From positions 11,526-75,525 of the forward strand of contig JAQUHK010000001.1 of assembly GCA_028683655.1 (NCBI GenBank): 64,000 nt of DNA, written 5' to 3'. Positions 2,278 through 63,040 of the stretch are shown piece after piece. The notes beneath the pieces are model-generated. The model was not told where the DNA came from and searched no databases. It was given only the letters and a program-made list of their open reading frames with translations. The DNA comes from Alphaproteobacteria bacterium. Its GTDB lineage: Bacteria; Pseudomonadota; Alphaproteobacteria; UBA9219. Positions within the stretch are counted from its first letter, which is position 1; each line of letters starts with the position of its first letter. The position numbers and the translations under genes are program-made.

Positions 2278-5200
2278 TTGACGAATCATGCGGGTATTCA
2301 TACCCATGCATTTGCTTGCCTGAAGCACACTCCTGTACAGAAGAAGGATCATCTTGTGCCTGTATTCCGTTTGAAGCCCTTTGTCTTTGTTGCCGTTTTG
2401 GTTATTGCGGCAATGTCTCTTCCTCTTACGGTCGCTGCGGGGACATGGAGCGGGCAGAAATCGGCTTATCAGTTGATTTTGGACAAGCTGGGCAAGGCTG
2501 ATCCCAAAAGCATGAATCTGGAGCAGGCACAGGCGTTTATCGAAGACCTTAAATCCCTTGCGCAAACGGAAGCGCTTCTTCCTTCGTCCATCTATGGCAA
2601 CAGCGCGACGGGGGCGAGTGGTCGCGAGGCGAGCGCGTGGGAAAAACGGGCGGCGTCGCAGGCTGTGGCGGTGGGGCAGACTCTGAGTGCGTCCAGCACG
2701 GCGGATGTGGCGGCGACGTTGGCGCAGAGCGGGCAGGCTTTGCTGCCGGACGGATCGGGCGCGGCACAGGGCTGGATGCAGGACAAGCTGCGCGGCGCGT
2801 TGGGGCAGACGGATAACAAGATGGCGGCGGGCGCGATCAATGGCGCGACCAGCGAGCTGGCAAGGGGCACCAGCAATCTGGCCAGCGGTTATGCCACGTC
2901 ACAGATCGGCCTGTCGGACGGCGTTGATGCCAGCAGCAGCCTGAACCAGATGGCGCTGCGCACGGGGCTTGAGGGCGCCAAGGGCGCGGCGGCGGCCAGC
3001 TCGGTCTATGCGTTGAGCCACATGGAGATGGACTATACCCTGTCGGGCAGCGGGATCGACGAGTACTTGGCCTTGATGGTGCAGCCGCTTTGGAACAACA
3101 ACGACCTGCATCACAATATCTTTATACAGGGTTCCTATTCCAACAAGGACGTGACCGACGCGTGGGCGGATACAAGCTCGCGCCGCGATACGGTGAACAC
3201 AGGTCTGGCGTACCGCTGGATCACGCCGGATGAACAGCATATGTTCGGGGTGAACAGCTTCTTTGACCACCAGTGGCCGTATCACCATAACCGCATGTCG
3301 CTGGGTCTGGATTACAAGAACAGCCTGTATGGCGTGGCGTTCAACAAGTACTTCGGCCTGTCCGATTGGCGCGGACGGGTTGACGTGTATGAAGAAAAGG
3401 CTCTGGGTGGCGAAGACCTTGAGTTCTCGGGTCGGTTGAGACAGGCCCCTGAGCTTGAGCTGTTCGTGAAGGGCTATCACTGGGCCCAGGAAGCGACGGC
3501 GGTAGTGAACCCCGACGGGGACGACATCTGGGGCTATGAGCTGGCGGCAGAATACGCGCCGATCAACGCCTTCTCGGTGCGTAGCGCGATCAGCAAGGAT
3601 AACGAGATGGACCGCGCGGCGGGCGAGATCACGCTGCGGCTGAACTATGCGTTTGGGCAAGGCTGGGATGATTTGTGGAGTCGACCCCATTATGACCTGA
3701 GTTCGGTGGTGTCGCGGCGGTTTGAGAAAGTGCGGCGCACGAACGAGATACGGGTGCAGACGCGCCAGAACCTGAGCGTGACGGCGCGGGTGACCTATGC
3801 GCAAGGCGCGAATGTGAGCGTGGGGCAAAGCTTGGCCTTTGGCACGACGATAACGACCAGCAGCGCAGCTGGCAATGCCGCAACGGTTCTGTTCGGCAGC
3901 GGGGCGCGGCTTGATATGGGGCAAAGCACCTCGGTCCGGCTTGAGAAGGACAAGGTGGTCTTGATATCCGGCCTTATGCAGTACACGAGCGGCACAGGCG
4001 GGATCACGACGATTACGGTGCCCAACGGCACGATCAACCTGCTGGGCACGGACGTAGATGTGCGCGTGTCGGGCAGCACGACAACCCTGCGCGTCCGCGA
4101 CGGCGCAGCGAACTTCAAGGATGAAAGCGGTACGACCCGCGTGGATAAGGAAGAGCTGGCGGAAAGCCAGCCCAATGACAGCGCCGCGCCACAAATCCGC
4201 GCATCGAGCACGTCGATTTACGAGACGCATGCGAGCGAAGCGCACGAACAGCTTGACCTTGTGGGCCCAACCCCGACGAGCGCAAAGGCCGCGCCCTATG
4301 CGAAGGCAGATGTGAGCGTGAGCGGCACGATGTCTGTGGGACAGACCCTGACCTTTACGGTGCCGCTGAGCGCAGCGGTGAATGTAAGCGGTTCGCCGCA
4401 ACTGGCCTTTACGCTGGGCGGGCAAGACCGGCTGGCGGACTATGCAAGCGGCAGCGGGACGACGAGCCTGATCTTCACCTATACGGTTGTGAGCGCGGAT
4501 GAAACCCTGTCCACGATCATCGCACAAGAAGTCCAGAAGAACGGCGGCAGCTTAACAGGCAGCAACGGTGCTCCCATGGTGTTGACCGTCTCTGGTACCT
4601 CGACCGGCACCGTGCCCGATCTGGTAGCCCCCACGATTACGGCCCTGACGGCGGTAACGAGCGGCAGCACACCGGCAGGCACCAACGACGTGATCACTTT
4701 TACGCTGGATGCGAGTGAAACGCTGGTCAAGAGCGGCAACCCGACCCTGACCTTAGACATTGGCGGTGTAACCCGCACGGCGACGTTCGCAAGCATCACA
4801 TCGGGCAATGCGATCTTCACCTATACGGTGCAGGCTGGCGACAGCGACACGGACGGGATCACGGTGACGGCGCTCAACATAGCCGCCACTGAGCTGACGG
4901 ACGGATCTGGCAATGATCTGGATACAACGCTGACCCTGCCGCAAAATATGAGCATCACGATCACAACATTGATGGGCCTGTCAACTTGCCCCAGCGGCGA
5001 CCTGTCGGCCCCGACGAACGCGGGCTGTGCCAGATTGTTCGGCAGCGACCCGACGAGCCTGAACGACGTGATGGTGTACGCGGGCGACGTTCCGGGCACA
5101 ACGACGGACTTCTTCGTCCGGCGTTGTGACCTCGGCATGACATGGAGCACCGCGACCTCGTCCTGCACCGGCACGCGCAGCACGATGCAGTGGAAGGACA

Positions 5201-14810: not shown

Positions 14811-15516
14811 GTGGCGTGCGCCTCCGCGCGTTCGAACCCGCAGGGTTCGACAAAACGCTTGGTGAGGGCACACCGCAGCCTCCAGCTCGTGAATGAGCCG
14901 CGTCTTCAACAAGGACCCCTTTTTATTGCGGGGTATTTTTGCTGGGGTGATGGAAACTTTCCTGATTTTAGTCTCGCGTGAAAGATGTTTTAGAATATCG
15001 TTATATATCAACAGGTTGGTGGGTGGTCTCGATTTTGAGAAAGCTGTTATACATCAACGACTTAGCCTAAAAAGACTCCCGAACAGACCCGTGAGCGTAC
15101 CAAATGAGGGCTCAGCTCGCTCTCAGAGCCCTTTTTTGTCTCGGTTCGTTGATTCTAAAGGGTTTTTTCTGAATCGAAGAGGCGGCCTTCTGTACCCCGT
15201 TTTTTGAGGGGGCGAGAGGCTTAGAGCCTGTTTACAAAGTGACATCGGATTCGAAAAACAGGGTCATTCCGGCACAGGGCGACAAAACGTATACGTTTTG
15301 CGCGGAGGGCCGTAAGGCCCGAAGTCCGAGGCTTGCCGAGGATACAAACAGGCAAAAAGCCTGTTTGTACAAATCCAGCGGCACGCCCCGCATCAAGTGC
15401 GGGGCAGGCTAGCGGACCAAAAGAGTCTTATGCGCGGCAGACGCCGCGCCACTGGACTCCGGCTTTCGCCGGAGTGACGCAGTTAGGGATAATGTCACAA
15501 GATTGTAAACAGGCTC

Positions 15517-20715: not shown

Positions 20716-21209
20716 GGCGCGTTGGGTTCGAAGAGGGGGCTGGGCTAGCGGCTCGCCCGCCTTTTCTGCCTTCGGTTTCTGCCTCGTTTTTGATTTGGAA
20801 AAAGTCATTTAGAATCAACGAATCAAGGCTAAAAAGGGCTCTGTGACGCACGGGAGGGCGTCTTGGGTACGCTCGAGGGGCTGTTCGGGAGTCTTTTTGG
20901 CCTAACCCATTGATCTGTAACAGCTTTCTTGAAATCGAGAGTAACGGGCAACCCCTTGATCTAAAACGATTTCTTCAAATCACCTTTTACGGAGAGATAA
21001 AATCGACGAAGTTGGCGTCCAGCGTCTTCCGCTCCTTTCCCCCTTCTGATTTTGGTGCTGATGGAACCTGCCTCGAAACAAAGCGAGTCGTAACGGCAAC
21101 ACTTTGTGAAATGGTTAGCAAAGCGTTAATCAAACGGTTGCGGCGTGAATCCCTGACTCTTACGCTGGCCATGGTGATTCGTTTTCGGTTACGGTCGGTT
21201 TCGGGGATT

Positions 21210-51288: not shown

Positions 51289-53394
51289 TCAGCCCAGCCG
51301 GAAGTGGGTTAACGGCTTGGGCAGCGTGGCGTGGATTTGCTCGATGATGCTGATCGCGCCGCCAACGGTGGCGGCGGCATGGACGAAGCCTTTTTGCTTC
51401 CGGCCATCATGGGCCGTATTAAGAAGCTTGTCGGCTTCTCTATCACCCAAAAAGGCCCGCATAAAAGGCTCGTGAAAAGCGTTGGGGCCACGGCCTTGAG
51501 GCTGGTGAATGTCCCCGTTCCAATAGATCATATGCGTTTGCTGCATCAGATCGGGAACAAGCGCGTGCAGAAGGTGAACAGCGGTTTGCTCGACAGCGGA
51601 ACCCTTGCCGCCAGCCGCACAGACGACGGCGTGACAGGGATGCACAATATCGACCGTCCTTGTATAGAGATCGGACACAAGTGACCATGAATCACAGGGC
51701 GGAATCTCGCTATTTTCTGTTTCAGAGGCCACCAAGGGCGGTGTGCTGGTACAGATGGAATGGACGCCGTTTGCTTGCCGATAGGTCATGTGATAGGCCC
51801 CCATGGCGTGCTTGTCACCGCCGCCGGAGCTAATGGCATGGCCGTTTTGTGCGGCGTAGTTAGCCAGTTCCCGAAGGAAGGTCAGGTTGACAAGATTGTC
51901 GTTGCTGGCCGAGGTAAAGGCCGCGAGGGTTAGAAGGTTCTGAACGGGATCTATGCCGCCCTGATTGCACTGGGTGTTCAGGGTGTGGTGGGCGTTAAAG
52001 TGCCGGTAATCACGCAGGCTGTGGGCCAGAATCTCTTTGGCGGCGGCTTCCATATCGCCCAGTTTTTTGCCGCGCACGATGTGCATATCACTGAAAGCGA
52101 GATGCTCACATTTTGCGTTGAGTTTAAGTGGCTTTCTGTCAAAAAAGGGCTGGCGGACATATCGTTTGGCCATGCCCATATTGGCGAGATAGGTCAAAAG
52201 GTCGAGCTTTTGGGTCCAGCTTCCGTCATCCAGCACGATCAGGGGTTTGCTCATTTCTGCGGCTTCAAAATCGCGCACCGTGGCCGTGGCCAAAAGTTGA
52301 AACCCCATTTGCAATTGTTCGCGCGGGGACAGGCCCGTCAGCGGATAAAAAATACGGGCATCGGCTTTTTCATAAGCAGCCAAAGGGTTAATCGCCTGAA
52401 TCATACGCGCCCGTGGTGGTGCGTTCTTGGGAAGGAGGCGCGGCACGGGTGGTTTTTTGGCTTCGTAAACACGGAATGAGCCTATATCCACTTTCTGGCG
52501 TTTAAGGGAAATAGGGGCACGTGGTGCGTCGGCAGGAAGGCCCGTTAAATGTTCGTACATGGTCATAACCAACGCGCGGCGCACGCTGTGGCCCGTCAGG
52601 AATTCTTCAAATTTCTTGATGTTCGGGGTGCCGTTAAAAGCTGGAGCGGATAAAAACTCAGCGGTAAGATTGATTTGGCTGGGGTCGAGGAGAAAGGGCT
52701 TTTTAAGGTTGCCATTTGTGGCCAAATGAAGGGGAACGGATAGATCCAGTTTGGTCGGACCTGCCTCAACGGCTGTGCCCAGCCTGTAAAAGGAAGCGGC
52801 GACTTGGTCAATAAGCTCGATAATATCTTTGGGTTTGTATCCCGATTCAAGGGCCGAGGTGCGAATCCAATTCACAAAGTTCTCTATGCTGACCGCTGCG
52901 ATGATCGGGCCTGTTTCTGCGCCCGGACCGGCGTTCTTACCATGGTTGTCGGCACTGTTCAGAACCTCTTCGGGGACCAAAGGCACATGTTTTTTGCGCA
53001 GGATGTCCCAAACTTCTTTGGGGACCTCAAGCGTGCTGTCTTCGCCCATAAAAAGGATATTGTTCGGAATGAAGGACAGAGCGTAATCGGCACAGACTTC
53101 TTTAATCAGTTTTTGATAAGCAGGGTTGGTCTGGAACTCGCTGACCTTGTCTTTGATCGCGCGTGTTTTTTGAAGGCTGTTTTCAACGCGGCTGCCCGTA
53201 TCTTCCGGCGCGGCGTGATAGGCGGCGAGAATGGTGTTCAGGCTTAAATAAAGTATAGGCACATTATTCGCGCGGGCGATGGCGTTATAATGTTCCAGCT
53301 TTTCATTGGTCGAGGTGGCGACGAAGCAGATAAAGGGTCCTGCGTTTTTGATGCCGCACTGTGCCGTTGATGTATTTTTAAGTGGCTTGTTCAT
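51289..53394 (-). CDS. large cytoplasmic hypothetical protein (701 aa)
   Basis: Long ORF with good coding statistics. No signal peptide. No family confidently recognised; only a weak Ham1/Maf-like resemblance at the N-terminus. Confidence 0.55.
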   Translation of the reverse strand: MNKPLKNTSTAQCGIKNAGPFICFVATSTNEKLEHYNAIARANNVPILYLSLNTILAAYHAAPEDTGSRVENSLQKTRAIKDKVSEFQTNPAYQKLIKEVCADYALSFIPNNILFMGEDSTLEVPKEVWDILRKKHVPLVPEEVLNSADNHGKNAGPGAETGPIIAAVSIENFVNWIRTSALESGYKPKDIIELIDQVAASFYRLGTAVEAGPTKLDLSVPLHLATNGNLKKPFLLDPSQINLTAEFLSAPAFNGTPNIKKFEEFLTGHSVRRALVMTMYEHLTGLPADAPRAPISLKRQKVDIGSFRVYEAKKPPVPRLLPKNAPPRARMIQAINPLAAYEKADARIFYPLTGLSPREQLQMGFQLLATATVRDFEAAEMSKPLIVLDDGSWTQKLDLLTYLANMGMAKRYVRQPFFDRKPLKLNAKCEHLAFSDMHIVRGKKLGDMEAAAKEILAHSLRDYRHFNAHHTLNTQCNQGGIDPVQNLLTLAAFTSASNDNLVNLTFLRELANYAAQNGHAISSGGGDKHAMGAYHMTYRQANGVHSICTSTPPLVASETENSEIPPCDSWSLVSDLYTRTVDIVHPCHAVVCAAGGKGSAVEQTAVHLLHALVPDLMQQTHMIYWNGDIHQPQGRGPNAFHEPFMRAFLGDREADKLLNTAHDGRKQKGFVHAAATVGGAISIIEQIHATLPKPLTHFRLG

Positions 53395-53480
53395 GCTGTC
53401 CTGTATGCTTTAAATTATTCACTCAAATAAATTGGGTTAGATAGGTAAAAGGCGCGGTTTGATCCGCGCCTTTGGTAGTG

Positions 53481-53933
53481 TCAATCGACCATAATATCTT
53501 CATTCCAAAGCTCGGGCTTGTCCTTGATGAATTGCTCCATCATGGCGATACAGGTGGGATCGTTCGCGATCACAACATCGACGCCACGCGATTTCAGGAA
53601 CTCTTCGTTGCCGCCAAAGGTGGTGTTTTCGCCGATCACGACGCGGGGAATGCCGAACTGGACCGTGGTGCCCGAACACATCATGCAGGGCGACAGGGTG
53701 GTATAAAGCGTGGTGTCCTTATAGGTGCGCTGGCGGCCCGCGTTAAAGAAAGCGTCCATTTCGCCGTGCAGGATGGGATTGTCTTTTTGAACGCGCTGGT
53801 TGTGCCCTGCGCCGATGACCTCATCGCCGCGCACCAAAACCGCACCGATGGGAATGCCACCTTCCGAAAGGCCTTTTTGAGCTTGTGCGACGGCCAGAGA
53901 AAGGAACTTCTTGTCGGCTTCGGTCATAGGCAT
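53481..53933 (-). CDS. nucleoside deaminase (CMP/dCMP-type zinc deaminase; TadA/guanine-deaminase-like)
   Basis: HGEMDA...PCMMCSG zinc-binding motifs. Confidence 0.8.
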   Translation of the reverse strand: MPMTEADKKFLSLAVAQAQKGLSEGGIPIGAVLVRGDEVIGAGHNQRVQKDNPILHGEMDAFFNAGRQRTYKDTTLYTTLSPCMMCSGTTVQFGIPRVVIGENTTFGGNEEFLKSRGVDVVIANDPTCIAMMEQFIKDKPELWNEDIMVD

Positions 53934-54076
53934 GGGCGGCTCCGTGCTGGTTGAGGGCGTTAACCATGAGCCGGTGCTCATGGCGATCCGTTAGCGCGTC
54001 TTATACATCCTCGCACCCTGCAAGAAAACCTGTTTCATTACTTTCACGAAAGGAGGTTGGTGGTGGGCCTATAAAC

Positions 54077-54248
54077 TTCTCCCCCCTGGCGGGGGAGAAA
54101 GCAAAATCTTAGGCTTACGAAGTAAGTCTTAGATTTTGCAAGAGTGGGGGTAAGACCCAGCGGCCTCTTTTACCCCCTCACCAGCAAAATCTAAGACTTG
54201 CCAAGCGGCAAGCCTAAGATTTTGCAACCTCTCCCGCAGGGGGAGAGG
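54077..54248. repeat. array of five imperfect palindromic elements (REP/MITE-like)
   Basis: TTCTCCCCCCTGGCGGGGGAGAA. Two copies of a ~40-bp hairpin built on GCAAAATCT(T/A)AG(G/A)CTT. CCTCTCCCGCAGGGGGAGAGG. Confidence 0.6.
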
Positions 54249-54260
54249 GCAAGAGAGGGA

Positions 54261-56156
54261 TTATCCCCTCTTAAACTCAGGGACGAGCTCTTCAAGGCGG
54301 GCGATGGCGGCGGTTTCGGTCATGCCGGCTTGGAGCAGGGTGGCAAAATTGTTGATGGATTGCTGAAGCTGGGGCAGCTCGACCGTCGGTGATTTGGCCA
54401 GAAACACGCCGTCAACGCCCGCGTGAATCAGCTCCTCGGACGGCGAGAACAACTCCTCATACAGCTTTTCACCCGGACGCAGGCCTGTGAACTCGATCTT
54501 GATATCCTCATCGGGGCGCAGGCCGGCAAGGCGGATCATCTGCCGCGCCAGATCGACGATTTTTACGGGCTGGCCCATGTCCAGAACCATGACTTTGCCG
54601 CGCACCTCGCTGGGCTGGATTCCAAACGCCATGGCTTGTAGCACGAGCTCCACCGCCTCGCGAACCGTCATGAAATAGCGGGTAATGTCGGGATGCGTGA
54701 CGGTGATGGGCCCGCCTTTGGCCAGCTGGTCTTGAAAACGCGGCACGACCGAGCCGGTGGAGCCCAGCACATTGCCAAAGCGCACGGTGACAAAGCGCGA
54801 GGCGGGAGAGAGAATGTCGAGGGCCTGAATATACATCTCGGCCAGCCGCTTGGTCGCGCCCATGACGTTGGTGGGGTAAACCGCCTTGTCGGTGGAGATC
54901 ATCAGCATCGCCTCCGCGCCCGACTGGGCCGCGCAATCCGCGACGATATGCGTGCCGACGGCGTTGGTCAAAATGGCTTCGCGGGCGTTGAATTCGGCGA
55001 TGGGCACATGCTTGATGGCGGCAGCGTGAAAGACTAGCTCCGGTTTTTCATCCTTGAAAATCTGGACAAGGCGCGTGCGGTCGCGCACGTCGGCCAGATA
55101 GGCGCGTTTGCTGACCAGCGGAAAGCTTTCGGTCAGCTCCATCTCGATCTTGTAAAGGTTGAACTCGCACAGATCGAGCACGGTCATATGCGCTGGAGCC
55201 AGCGCGGCAATCTGGCGCACGAGTTCGGAGCCGATGGTGCCGCCCGCGCCCGTAATCAGCACGCGCTTGCCCGTAATCAGCTTGGTGATCGCCTCGCGGT
55301 TCAAGATGGTTTCAGGGCGGCCCAAAAGGTCTTCCAGAGCCAGCGGCTGATCGGGCAGCCTTGCGCTGCGCACATCGTTTTGCAGCTCGGTCAGGGCAGG
55401 AAGGCGCGAGAGTTTAAGCCCCAGCGTTGTGCATTGATCCAAGAGGGTGGCCATCATGGCCGCATTCATGCGCGTGGTCGAGCGCGTGATGACAAGGCGG
55501 CTGGGGGCCATGTTCTTCTCGCGCAGTTTCTCGATAATGTCGGCAAGCTCGGCGACGGTGCCCAGTACCTTGATGCTATGCACATTGCGGCCTACGCGCT
55601 TGTCGTTTTCACCGATGATCCCGACGATGCGGAAAGGGGCCTGCGGGTTGCTGGCCACCGCGCGGATGAACAGGTCGGCCTCGTCGCCCGCGCCGACCAA
55701 CAGGACATTGACGCGCCCGCCGCCCGATTTCTCCCAAAGGGCAGAAAGGCGACGCTCACGCAAAAGGCGCAGGAACAGGCGCGAGCCGCCCAGAAAGGCG
55801 AGCAGGATAAACCAGACGATGACGGGCAGCGTGCGGGGCACGCCCTCAAGCCGCATGACGAAAAAGGCGACCATGGTGAAGGCGACAACGGCGATGGATA
55901 CGGCTTGGAAAATGCGCTTCAAATCGCTGACGGACGAAAAGGCCCAGATGCCGCGATAAAGGCCGCTGGCCAGAAAGACAACGGTGCAAGTCACGGTAAA
56001 CAAGCCGCCACCGGCGAGAATCAGGCTGACAGGCGTGGTGACGATATCGTCCCCGACGCGCAGGTAAAGGGCCAGCAAATAAGCCAAAGCGGCCATAACG
56101 ATATCGTGCGCAAGCGCAAGGCCAAAACGGTTCAGGCGGGGAAGGGGCAGTTTCAT
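54261..56156 (-). CDS. membrane-bound UDP-sugar 4,6-dehydratase (WbpM/PglF/CapD family)
   Basis: Four N-terminal TM helices. VLITGAGGTIGSEL NAD-binding motif and CapD-like catalytic domain. Confidence 0.85.
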   Translation of the reverse strand: MKLPLPRLNRFGLALAHDIVMAALAYLLALYLRVGDDIVTTPVSLILAGGGLFTVTCTVVFLASGLYRGIWAFSSVSDLKRIFQAVSIAVVAFTMVAFFVMRLEGVPRTLPVIVWFILLAFLGGSRLFLRLLRERRLSALWEKSGGGRVNVLLVGAGDEADLFIRAVASNPQAPFRIVGIIGENDKRVGRNVHSIKVLGTVAELADIIEKLREKNMAPSRLVITRSTTRMNAAMMATLLDQCTTLGLKLSRLPALTELQNDVRSARLPDQPLALEDLLGRPETILNREAITKLITGKRVLITGAGGTIGSELVRQIAALAPAHMTVLDLCEFNLYKIEMELTESFPLVSKRAYLADVRDRTRLVQIFKDEKPELVFHAAAIKHVPIAEFNAREAILTNAVGTHIVADCAAQSGAEAMLMISTDKAVYPTNVMGATKRLAEMYIQALDILSPASRFVTVRFGNVLGSTGSVVPRFQDQLAKGGPITVTHPDITRYFMTVREAVELVLQAMAFGIQPSEVRGKVMVLDMGQPVKIVDLARQMIRLAGLRPDEDIKIEFTGLRPGEKLYEELFSPSEELIHAGVDGVFLAKSPTVELPQLQQSINNFATLLQAGMTETAAIARLEELVPEFKRG

Positions 56157-58135: not shown

Positions 58136-58476
58136 GGGGACTTCTTTCCTTTCAAGGAGAGTGAAGGGGTAGCGTATAGGTGACTTTTACCGTTTTTTGT
58201 GGAATGTTGCATAAATAAGATCATGAGGACGACAACGGAAAGAAGTTTTCGTCTTTCCGGAGAAACTTTCTCTTCGACGCTGCTTAGCGGCGAAAGAAAG
58301 TTTAATCCGGAATCCAGTTTTACTCTGAAACATTCACTGGATTCCGGATCTGCGCACCTCAGCCCTCACGGGCTTCGGCACTTGTCCGGAATGACGATTT
58401 GTATTTGCTGTAGGCTTTCTAGGAGCCATCAAACGCTTGTTGCCCTCTTTTATCGAAAGAAAGGTGCCTTCTGTCA

Positions 58477-62821: not shown

Positions 62822-62897
62822 GGGGCCATAGCTCAGCTGGGAGAGCGCAACAATGGCATTGTTGAGGTCAGGGGTTCGATCCCCCTTGGCTCCACCA
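62822..62897 (+). tRNA. tRNA-Ala (anticodon GGC)
   Basis: Cloverleaf folded by hand. G3:U70 Ala identity pair. Anticodon loop ATGGCAT. T-loop TTCGATC. 3' CCA encoded. Confidence 0.9.
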
Positions 62898-62913
62898 TCT
62901 ACCTTCCTAAAAT

Positions 62914-63022
62914 ATGTGGCTCTCCCCCAAAGGATGGGGCGGGGGTTGAGGTTATCATAGCGAGGCCTCCGGCAGGTGGCCACACAAAACAATGGCTCTC
63001 TCCCAAAGGATGGGGCGGGGGG
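62914..63022 (+). repeat. two direct copies of a ~30-bp G/C hairpin repeat (GGCTCTCCCCCAAAGGATGGGGCGGGGG) immediately 3' of tRNA-Ala
   Basis: Copies at about 62916..62945 and 62991..63022, separated by a ~45-bp spacer. Confidence 0.55.
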
Positions 63023-63040
63023 GAGAGACCTATAAATGAA

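Follow-up and report, generated by a model that had tools for sequence, protein, structure and literature searches.

A tail-to-tail doublet of a dispersed, BoxC/PIT-like palindromic repeat at the 3' end of a polysaccharide gene in a Micavibrio-like alphaproteobacterium

The 64,000-nucleotide stretch of DNA analyzed here (the window) derives from an uncultured Micavibrio-like alphaproteobacterium; its SecA protein is 100% identical to one that NCBI lists under a metagenome-assembled genome (MAG) of an Alphaproteobacteria bacterium, and the next relatives are Micavibrio-like MAGs. The subject of this report is a palindromic array between two genes on the reverse strand of this window. The upstream gene (54261–56156, −) codes for a CapD/PglF-like polysaccharide dehydratase, the stop codon of which lies 13 nt before the array. 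The downstream gene (53481–53933, −) codes for a protein with the cytidine/dCMP-deaminase fold and starts 143 nt past the array. Our analysis identifies the array as a tail-to-tail doublet of one oriented, non-coding unit of about 78 nt.

A preliminary description of this region listed five imperfect palindromes between positions 54077 and 54248, and an inverted-repeat search recovered every one of them in place. The first (54077–54085 / 54091–54099) and the fifth (54228–54235 / 54241–54248) form perfect stems of 9 and 8 bp. The second (54101–54118 / 54122–54139) and the fourth (54184–54202 / 54207–54225) have arms of 18 and 19 nt that are 89% complementary in each case, and the central palindrome (54142–54153 / 54170–54181) lies inside a larger inverted repeat, I2. 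The whole 172 nt make up a single imperfect inverted repeat with the arms 54079–54116 / 54210–54247 and 54124–54153 / 54170–54199. The palindromes are therefore real, but they are not five independent elements: a single composite unit with a defined orientation is present twice, in inverted order, and the central palindrome is no more than the two unit tails (GGGGGTAA / TTACCCCC) opposite each other across a 16-nt spacer. The structure of the array is far beyond chance. RNA folding of 54060–54265 gave z-scores of −8.6 and −9.6 for the two strands, DNA folding of 54077–54249 gave z = −11, and in none of the three tests was any of 200 shuffled sequences as stable.

Read from 5' to 3', a unit consists of hairpin A (a pyrimidine arm, a loop of 4–5 nt and a purine arm), a linker of 1–2 nt, hairpin B, a second linker of 1–3 nt and a G-rich tail. 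Hairpin B spans 39–42 nt and has the general form GCAAAATCTTAGGCTT..loop..AAGTCTTAGATTTTGC, with an A-tract and a T-tract. Unit 1 (54077–54153, +), which belongs to the alpha type, scored 96.7 bits (E = 6e-21) with a covariance model of the family, R1, and folds as DNA with −21.8 kcal/mol (z = −6.3). Its hairpin A (54077–54099) has the pyrimidine arm TTCTCCCCC, the loop CTGGC and the purine arm GGGGGAGAA. Its hairpin B (54101–54139) reads GCAAAATCTTAGGCTTAC-GAA-GTAAGTCTTAGATTTTGC and contains a conserved T.T mismatch and a G.T wobble. The tail (54143–54150), of the reverse-Hoogsteen type, is AGTGGGGG, which mirrors the R stem GGGGGAGA with one A changed to T. This unit is identical in 76 of 77 nt to copies in four other loci (L030, L031, L041 and L055). 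The spacer between the tails (54154–54169) is the loop of the central palindrome, and other doublets of this species have a homologous spacer. Unit 2 (54249–54170, −) is of the beta type and scored 95.4 bits with the same model; its DNA fold has −25.1 kcal/mol (z = −6.5). On this strand, the Y stem CCTCTCCC (54248–54241), the R stem GGGAGAGG (54235–54228), hairpin B (54225–54184) and the tail GGTGAGGG (54182–54175) follow one another.

The tail is the mirror image of the purine arm of hairpin A, with A either kept or changed to T, and is neither its direct repeat nor its complement: GGGAGAGG occurs with GGTGAGGG, GGGGGAGA with AG(A/T)GGGGG, and GGGGGAGG with GGTGGGGG. Such a mirror layout is what an antiparallel purine-motif triple helix within one strand requires. 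Among 66 unique units, related copies included, 53 fit the mirror rule (G.G / A.A / T.A) at eight of eight positions, as compared with a single unit for the direct-repeat reading. Purine arm and tail also covary among subtypes, and none of 2000 permutations reached the observed match. In both window units, the pyrimidine and purine stems pair perfectly around a 5-nt first loop, and all eight triads are of the allowed types G.G-C, A.A-T and T.A-T. A strict class II triplex finder (8-nt stems, zero mismatch) returned exactly these two units from the 64-kb window, with TCTCCCCC / GGGGGAGA / AGTGGGGG as the stems of unit 1 on the forward strand, and nothing from 20 shuffled versions. The same finder also recovers the BoxC pair between hrpB and mrcB of Escherichia coli. 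By its layout, each unit is thus a class II intrastrand-triplex motif of the BoxC/PIT/TMECO type that carries hairpin B in its second loop.

Two other readings of the G-rich segments were considered. In the first, the tail would act as an alternative Watson–Crick partner of the pyrimidine arm, as in an anti-terminator-like switch. We reject this arrangement: alpha units have the wrong polarity for it, and beta units would be left with a mismatch at the conserved A-to-T change; the count of 53 mirror fits versus one direct repeat among 66 units also speaks against it. The second, a G-quadruplex, was set aside since each unit has just two long G runs and since nuclear magnetic resonance (NMR) data on BoxC favored a triplex (PMC4666352).

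The BoxC elements, also known as PIT or TMECO, were reportedly described by Bachellier in the 1990s and by Hoyne and Maher in 2000, and later by Holder et al. in 2015 (PMC4666352). Twenty-three copies of these elements are present in E. coli K-12 and 3610 in 262 proteobacterial genomes, always in intergenic positions, and triplex formation has been observed in vitro (PMC4666352). Our units share with them the class II order of pyrimidine stem, loop, purine stem and mirror G/A/T stem. Unit 2 even has stems identical to those of the E. coli hrpB-mrcB copy (CCTCTCCC / GGGAGAGG / GGTGAGGG), and this pair too is arranged tail to tail, about 13 nt past a stop codon. Both families are intergenic, multi-copy and located shortly past stop codons, and both form tail-to-tail pairs of two different subtypes; in E. 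coli K-12, five loci contain inverted pairs, each made of a type A and a type B motif (PMC4666352). A further similarity is local instability from strain to strain in the absence of a nearby transposase: PIT elements have been tied to local genomic instability, with partial deletions in paired copies that leave a hairpin behind (PMC4666352).

The two families differ in the second loop, which is 3 nt long in E. coli; in the window it is occupied by the conserved hairpin B and measures 44 nt in unit 1 and 45 nt in unit 2. The stems of unit 1 (TCTCCCCC / GGGGGAGA / AGTGGGGG) are also different, and the host is an alphaproteobacterium. The published consensus is CCCTCNCCC N3-6 GGGNGAGGG N3 GGGNGAGGG (PMC4666352); relative to these 9-nt stems, the 8-nt stems of unit 2 are each one base short. 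We classify the units as a new variant of BoxC/PIT rather than as plain members because the second loop is not short and because the stems of unit 1 differ. Without hairpin B, loop 2 would shrink to 3 nt in unit 2 (TT + T) and to 6 nt in unit 1 (AA + AAG). Related loci do contain, side by side with the long-loop units, forms in which loop 2 has 3 nt: among 46 unique perfect motifs, loop 2 measures 3 nt in four, 16 nt in one, 42–49 nt with a single hairpin in 35, and 72–111 nt in six. The published limits for this loop are 3 nt in the TMECO consensus, 1–6 nt in the ITxF search and 0–10 nt in the PIT search. With caps at 6 or 10 nt, these searches would let the hairpin-bearing form escape. As judged from sequence, what is new here is a conserved hairpin within the second loop of an otherwise known type of motif.

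The single motif with a 16-nt second loop lies in the Aliirhizobium terrae locus L002 from position 4887, where loop 2 of the triplex layout is a mini-hairpin: CTTCTCCC..GGGAGAAG GTGGCCCGAAGGGTCG GATGAGGG. This copy is a hint that Alphaproteobacteria may generally carry a hairpin in loop 2. It resembles common rhizobial intergenic repeats and is one example of the rhizobial form TTCTCCCC..GGGGAGAAGG-small hairpin-GATGAGGGG, in which hairpin A, small hairpin and tail are arranged in the same way.

After defining the unit, we describe its distribution beyond the window. Exact-pattern scans of genome and metagenome sequence with the hairpin B motif gathered 62 loci, 20 from genomes and 42 from metagenomes. 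About 43 of them contain the complete unit of hairpin A, hairpin B and tail in unrelated flanks; they come from an Aliirhizobium, a Rhizobium, Devosia insulae, MAGs of Micavibrio, one Rhodospirillaceae MAG and further contigs of Alphaproteobacteria. The remaining pattern matches are AT-rich terminators of Firmicutes and Bacteroidetes that fit the pattern by accident. Comparison of the window with the first 20 loci (L001–L020) by blastn showed that the repeat alone matches, at 77–90% identity. Hairpin B is common to Rhizobium, Devosia, Micavibrio-like and Rhodospirillaceae-like lineages at about 80–90% identity. Covariance model R1, built from 35 units and run over 381 kb, detected 81 units (70 unique) at non-homologous intergenic sites. 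On the sense strand the entire unit scores 43–102 bits, whereas the antisense strand reaches about 32 bits with hairpin B only, which means that the unit has a direction. These results support the preliminary suggestion of a family like the repetitive extragenic palindromes (REPs) or of a small non-autonomous element: the GCAAAATCT... hairpin and the flanking C/G hairpins recur at many non-homologous intergenic sites. Recurrence of the motif had been proposed as the check, and matches in contigs assigned to the same species and in other Alphaproteobacteria show that the motif is not unique. Fifteen matches fall on nine long contigs of one metagenome (about 0.96 Mb in total), a density that is an upper estimate because these contigs were chosen for having matches; contig 10000119 alone among the nine is shown to be of the window's species. 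A blastn search of PLSDB plasmids with a unit gave no match and no copy of the hairpin B subfamily, and the hairpin B pattern found no match in viral contigs.

The copies are arranged as 28 tail-to-tail doublets, four head-to-head doublets, 22 singles and one triple. According to a crude map of open reading frames (ORFs), all arrays are intergenic; 14 lie between convergent, 26 between tandem and four between divergent genes, and most are found 13–60 nt past a stop codon, with units pointing either way with respect to the upstream gene. A doublet is usually made of two subtypes, typically alpha and beta, and different copies have homologous spacers; the doublet is therefore copied as a whole.

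Some copies carry additional structure. Several doublets of related contigs (L026, L041, L030, L049 and L021) are bracketed by a further inverted motif, AACCCGAGTTATGGGG ... CCATAACTCGGGTT, as an outer palindromic layer that the window copy does not have. Variant units in L042 (2850–2938), L060 (2365–2453), L061 (480–568) and L035 (7649–7741) contain an extra hairpin, CTTGACGCC-GAAG-GGCGTCAAG, before hairpin B. This hairpin resembles the CGTC-tagged REPs that have been reported as common in Alphaproteobacteria, Micavibrio included.

The site of the array is polymorphic between strains, which is further support for the repeat-family reading. An identical deaminase protein is encoded on seven contigs of the same species from other samples (L063–L069). 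One of these, L063, is 97–98% identical to the window over 12 kb. L069 is cut off inside the site; the other six span it, and all six (L063–L068) lack a 143-nt segment that corresponds to 54096–54238 of the window. Their intergenic region is 183 nt long, versus 327 nt in the window. The sequence GGGGG occurs once in this short allele and twice in the window (54091–54095 and 54239–54243), where it bounds the 143-nt segment. The extent of this segment places each breakpoint within the purine arm of an A hairpin, one per unit. The short allele retains nucleotides 1–19 of unit 1 and continues with a purine-rich stretch. With filters off, this remnant scores 18.6 bits with the covariance model as a unit without hairpin B; for comparison, BoxC copies of E. 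coli score about 16 bits. Exact-protein look-ups of the window's dehydratase, its 701-aa protein and its SecA returned none on record, and for this reason the window is the one contig found to carry the filled allele. Taken together, the unit is multi-copy, intergenic, usually located just 3' of genes, mostly paired as two subtypes, and strain-variable.

We favor the interpretation, with a probability of roughly 0.7, that the array is a tail-to-tail doublet of a dispersed BoxC/PIT-type repeat with a hairpin in its loop, and that this repeat spreads by slippage or recombination. The strand asymmetry of hairpin B fits this reading. Both arms read CTTAG, which produces the T.T mismatch in 32 of 35 units, and the G.T wobble is present in 28 of 35, at positions that had been left free by the search pattern; the upper stem varies through compensating changes in both arms. 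On the triplex-capable strand hairpin B is the more stable one in 51 of 59 distinct versions, with a mean difference of −3.8 kcal/mol (RNA parameters). This bias, together with the mismatch, points to the G-rich strand as the structure-forming strand, either as single-stranded DNA or as RNA. When single-stranded, the G-rich strand would fold into both hairpins and perhaps into a triplex of hairpin A with the tail. Such structures would be expected to stall replication, and the repeated stems of the element may then slip or recombine with one another. These events could both create and destroy copies, and the 143-nt difference with its ends in the two A hairpins would be one example. In the dehydratase transcript, the same hairpins would constitute a 3'-end structure that may terminate transcription or protect the mRNA. 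A dedicated mobilizing enzyme was not identified.

Several observations weigh against this interpretation. The second loops of 44–45 nt are outside the range of 1–6 nt that has been studied for BoxC, so that the triplex is a prediction here, and for BoxC itself no stable triplex was seen in vivo in E. coli (PMC4666352). The statistics on mirror fit and covariation count related copies and therefore overstate independence. The relative abundance of the unit forms is biased because the loci were collected through hairpin B. The 64-kb window contains one doublet only, and copy number in the source genome was covered within the window alone. Wobbles of the G.U type in hairpin B would fit selection on RNA equally well, and a purine-motif triplex is impossible in RNA. 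Finally, neither allele at the polymorphic site is a clean empty site, and the 143-nt change is either a gain or a loss. The purine-rich stretch by the breakpoint differs from the window over about 22 nt by some four substitutions and two small gaps, as compared with a background of 2–3%; with one junction diverged in this way, the change arose by neither a clean insertion nor a clean excision.

The most probable of the alternatives, although we consider it unlikely, is that the array is primarily a host-selected 3'-end element, in which hairpin B serves as a bidirectional intrinsic terminator and/or as a stabilizer of the mRNA 3' end, and the repeat character is secondary. Hairpin B indeed resembles such terminators in its A-tract, stem-loop and T-tract just past a stop codon. 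A terminator consensus scan flags its upper stem plus TAGATTTTGC on both strands of both window copies. The chance pattern matches in Firmicutes and Bacteroidetes look like ordinary terminators, and the arrays, at 13–60 nt past stop codons, are rare between divergent genes. The G.U wobbles on the sense strand would also suit a function in the transcript. Unlike in a typical terminator, however, the T run is short, with just 4 nt, is paired in the full stem, and is embedded between the purine arm and the triplex tail; hairpin B is moreover a repeated sequence conserved across genera. A 3'-end function also leaves the mirror-image tail and the conserved triplex layout unexplained, and it must accommodate units in both orientations relative to the upstream gene as well as six full same-species contigs that have no hairpin B at the site. 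PIT elements showed neither promoter nor terminator activity in E. coli (PMC4666352). The preliminary description had considered a structured small RNA or a terminator cluster; neither idea received direct support, even though the form of hairpin B is terminator-like.

One arm of hairpin B, as a putative IHF site, matches WATCAANNNNTTR with one mismatch. Since such a match has a chance probability of about 3% in a stretch of this size, we regard it as a lead only. Neither CcrM (GANTC) nor CtrA (TTAA-N7-TTAA) sites are present.

More doubtful than a 3'-end element is a mechanism as in REPINs, by which the doublet would be a non-autonomous transposon that a HUH/Y1 enzyme (RAYT or similar), encoded by a single-copy gene and recognizing hairpin B, mobilizes in single-stranded form. 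Like REP, BIME and REPIN sequences, our repeats are imperfect palindromes dispersed over intergenic regions, most of them 3' of genes. Inverted doublets, which can fold into one long hairpin, dominate among them, with homologous spacers in the different copies. Because of a conserved mismatch, the hairpin is not the same on the two strands, alpha units are near-identical at many sites, and the element is present or absent depending on the strain. The properties of REPINs have been set out in the literature (PMC3337134). The unit differs from REPs in size and composition, with two hairpins and a tail in 78 nt instead of 20–40 nt. It is devoid of the GTAG or CGTC end tag (PMC3733652): in the window units, neither tag stands at the foot of hairpin A or B, and the CGTC-type extra hairpin is restricted to some variants (L042, L060 and L061). 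A tblastn search with E. coli RayT against the window and all loci (575 kb) gave nothing better than E = 0.17, which is a weak negative since it rests on one query and a partial genome. BoxC elements of E. coli have no associated transposase either (PMC4666352). The short allele is also difficult to reconcile with precise excision because the breakpoints fall inside A hairpins that belong to the element itself, a remnant is left in place, and divergence is seen at one junction. If an enzyme-driven mechanism of this kind were nevertheless true, it would be the more novel outcome.

A still more speculative proposal, which we would rate slightly below a REPIN-type mechanism, is that the motif with a hairpin in the triplex loop represents a distinct class of mobile elements conserved across Alphaproteobacteria. 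A protein that recognizes the folded, single-stranded G-rich strand (triplex plus T.T-mismatch hairpin) would then copy or excise the doublet. If so, BoxC-type elements would be decayed members that have lost the hairpin.

The array is very unlikely to be a classical MITE (a miniature transposable element with inverted repeats), in which the inverted units of about 75 nt would be terminal inverted repeats for a DDE transposase that duplicates its target on insertion. Long terminal inverted repeats in a multi-copy element of about 170 nt with AT-rich flanks would fit this description. However, the copies compared revealed no consistent target-site duplication and no insertion-site consensus beyond AT-rich flanks, single units are common, 19 nt from the end of the element persist in the empty allele, together with a motif remnant without hairpin B, and no parent insertion sequence with these ends was seen. 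Least probable of all is a structured small-RNA gene or a cis-regulatory leader of the deaminase gene, since the very stable predicted structure and the location 143 nt upstream of the deaminase start are outweighed by the lack of a promoter-like site and of any Rfam match beyond noise (microRNA-type sub-threshold hits at permissive thresholds in 53000–55000; tRNA only at gathering thresholds in the whole window), by the occurrence of the same unit next to unrelated genes in both orientations, and by strains that encode an identical deaminase protein but lack the array.

With the reading as a BoxC/PIT-type doublet preferred over these alternatives, we turn to its relation to repeats described in other Alphaproteobacteria. 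RIME, Sm-repeats and the "AB, C palindromes" of Sinorhizobium meliloti, as well as Bru-RS1/2 of Brucella, are intergenic mosaic palindromic repeats of about 100 nt with unexplained function (PMC2573895). Our repeats are likewise alphaproteobacterial intergenic mosaic palindromes, and the unit may correspond to the rhizobial RIME, Sm-repeat or "AB, C palindrome", with the caveat that they are likened by description only. A literature search with the hairpin sequence returned unrelated primers only.

The origin, spread and role of the widespread proteobacterial BoxC/PIT motifs have been unexplained since the 1990s. The present repeats suggest that the frequency and modularity of triplex-motif elements may exceed what has been reported, above all in Alphaproteobacteria. 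A site at which strains differ in the presence of the element provides a natural case for the gain or loss of such elements, and the same strain pair bears on a possible effect of the element on the 3' terminus of a transcript for polysaccharide synthesis. In annotations, the region is to be treated as a repeat and not as a gene.

A smaller feature adjoins the array. A sixth, purine-first hairpin, AGAGGG..CCCTCT (54251–54273, or about 54254–54271 when delimited more narrowly), overlaps the stop codon of the dehydratase gene and is present in both alleles with sequence differences. Its purine arm consists of the last dehydratase codons, AAG AGG GGA TAA, which pair with the sequence just downstream; the same site exists in L063–L068. 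The end of the dehydratase gene may be derived from, or have been shaped by, an older copy of the repeat.

Other repeated or possibly mobile sequences are found elsewhere in the window. A second non-coding repeat of about 200 nt is present at 14953–15178 (+) and 20776–20982 (−), and also in L022, L033, L036, L041, L049 and L059. Its copies are 74–86% identical, share the invariant core AAAAAGACTCCCGAACAG..GCGTACC..CAGAGCCCTTTTT and end in a stem followed by a T run. No conserved ORF and no Rfam match were found for this repeat, which is a candidate for a multi-copy small-RNA family. A tRNA-Ala(GGC) gene (62822–62897) is followed by an element (62910–63035) with the direct repeats GGCTCTCCCCCAAAGGATGGGGCGGGGG. 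In the same-species contig L048 (11352–12620), 99% identity to the window starts only at 62994, and about 100 nt before this match begins, L048 contains a partial copy of the tRNA 3' end (ATCCCCCTTGGCACCA). This arrangement suggests that an island has integrated at this tRNA in the other strain. Within the polysaccharide locus, finally, a 150-nt stretch (58249–58397) is 84% identical to positions 1058–1205 of L031, a segment that adjoins a doublet.

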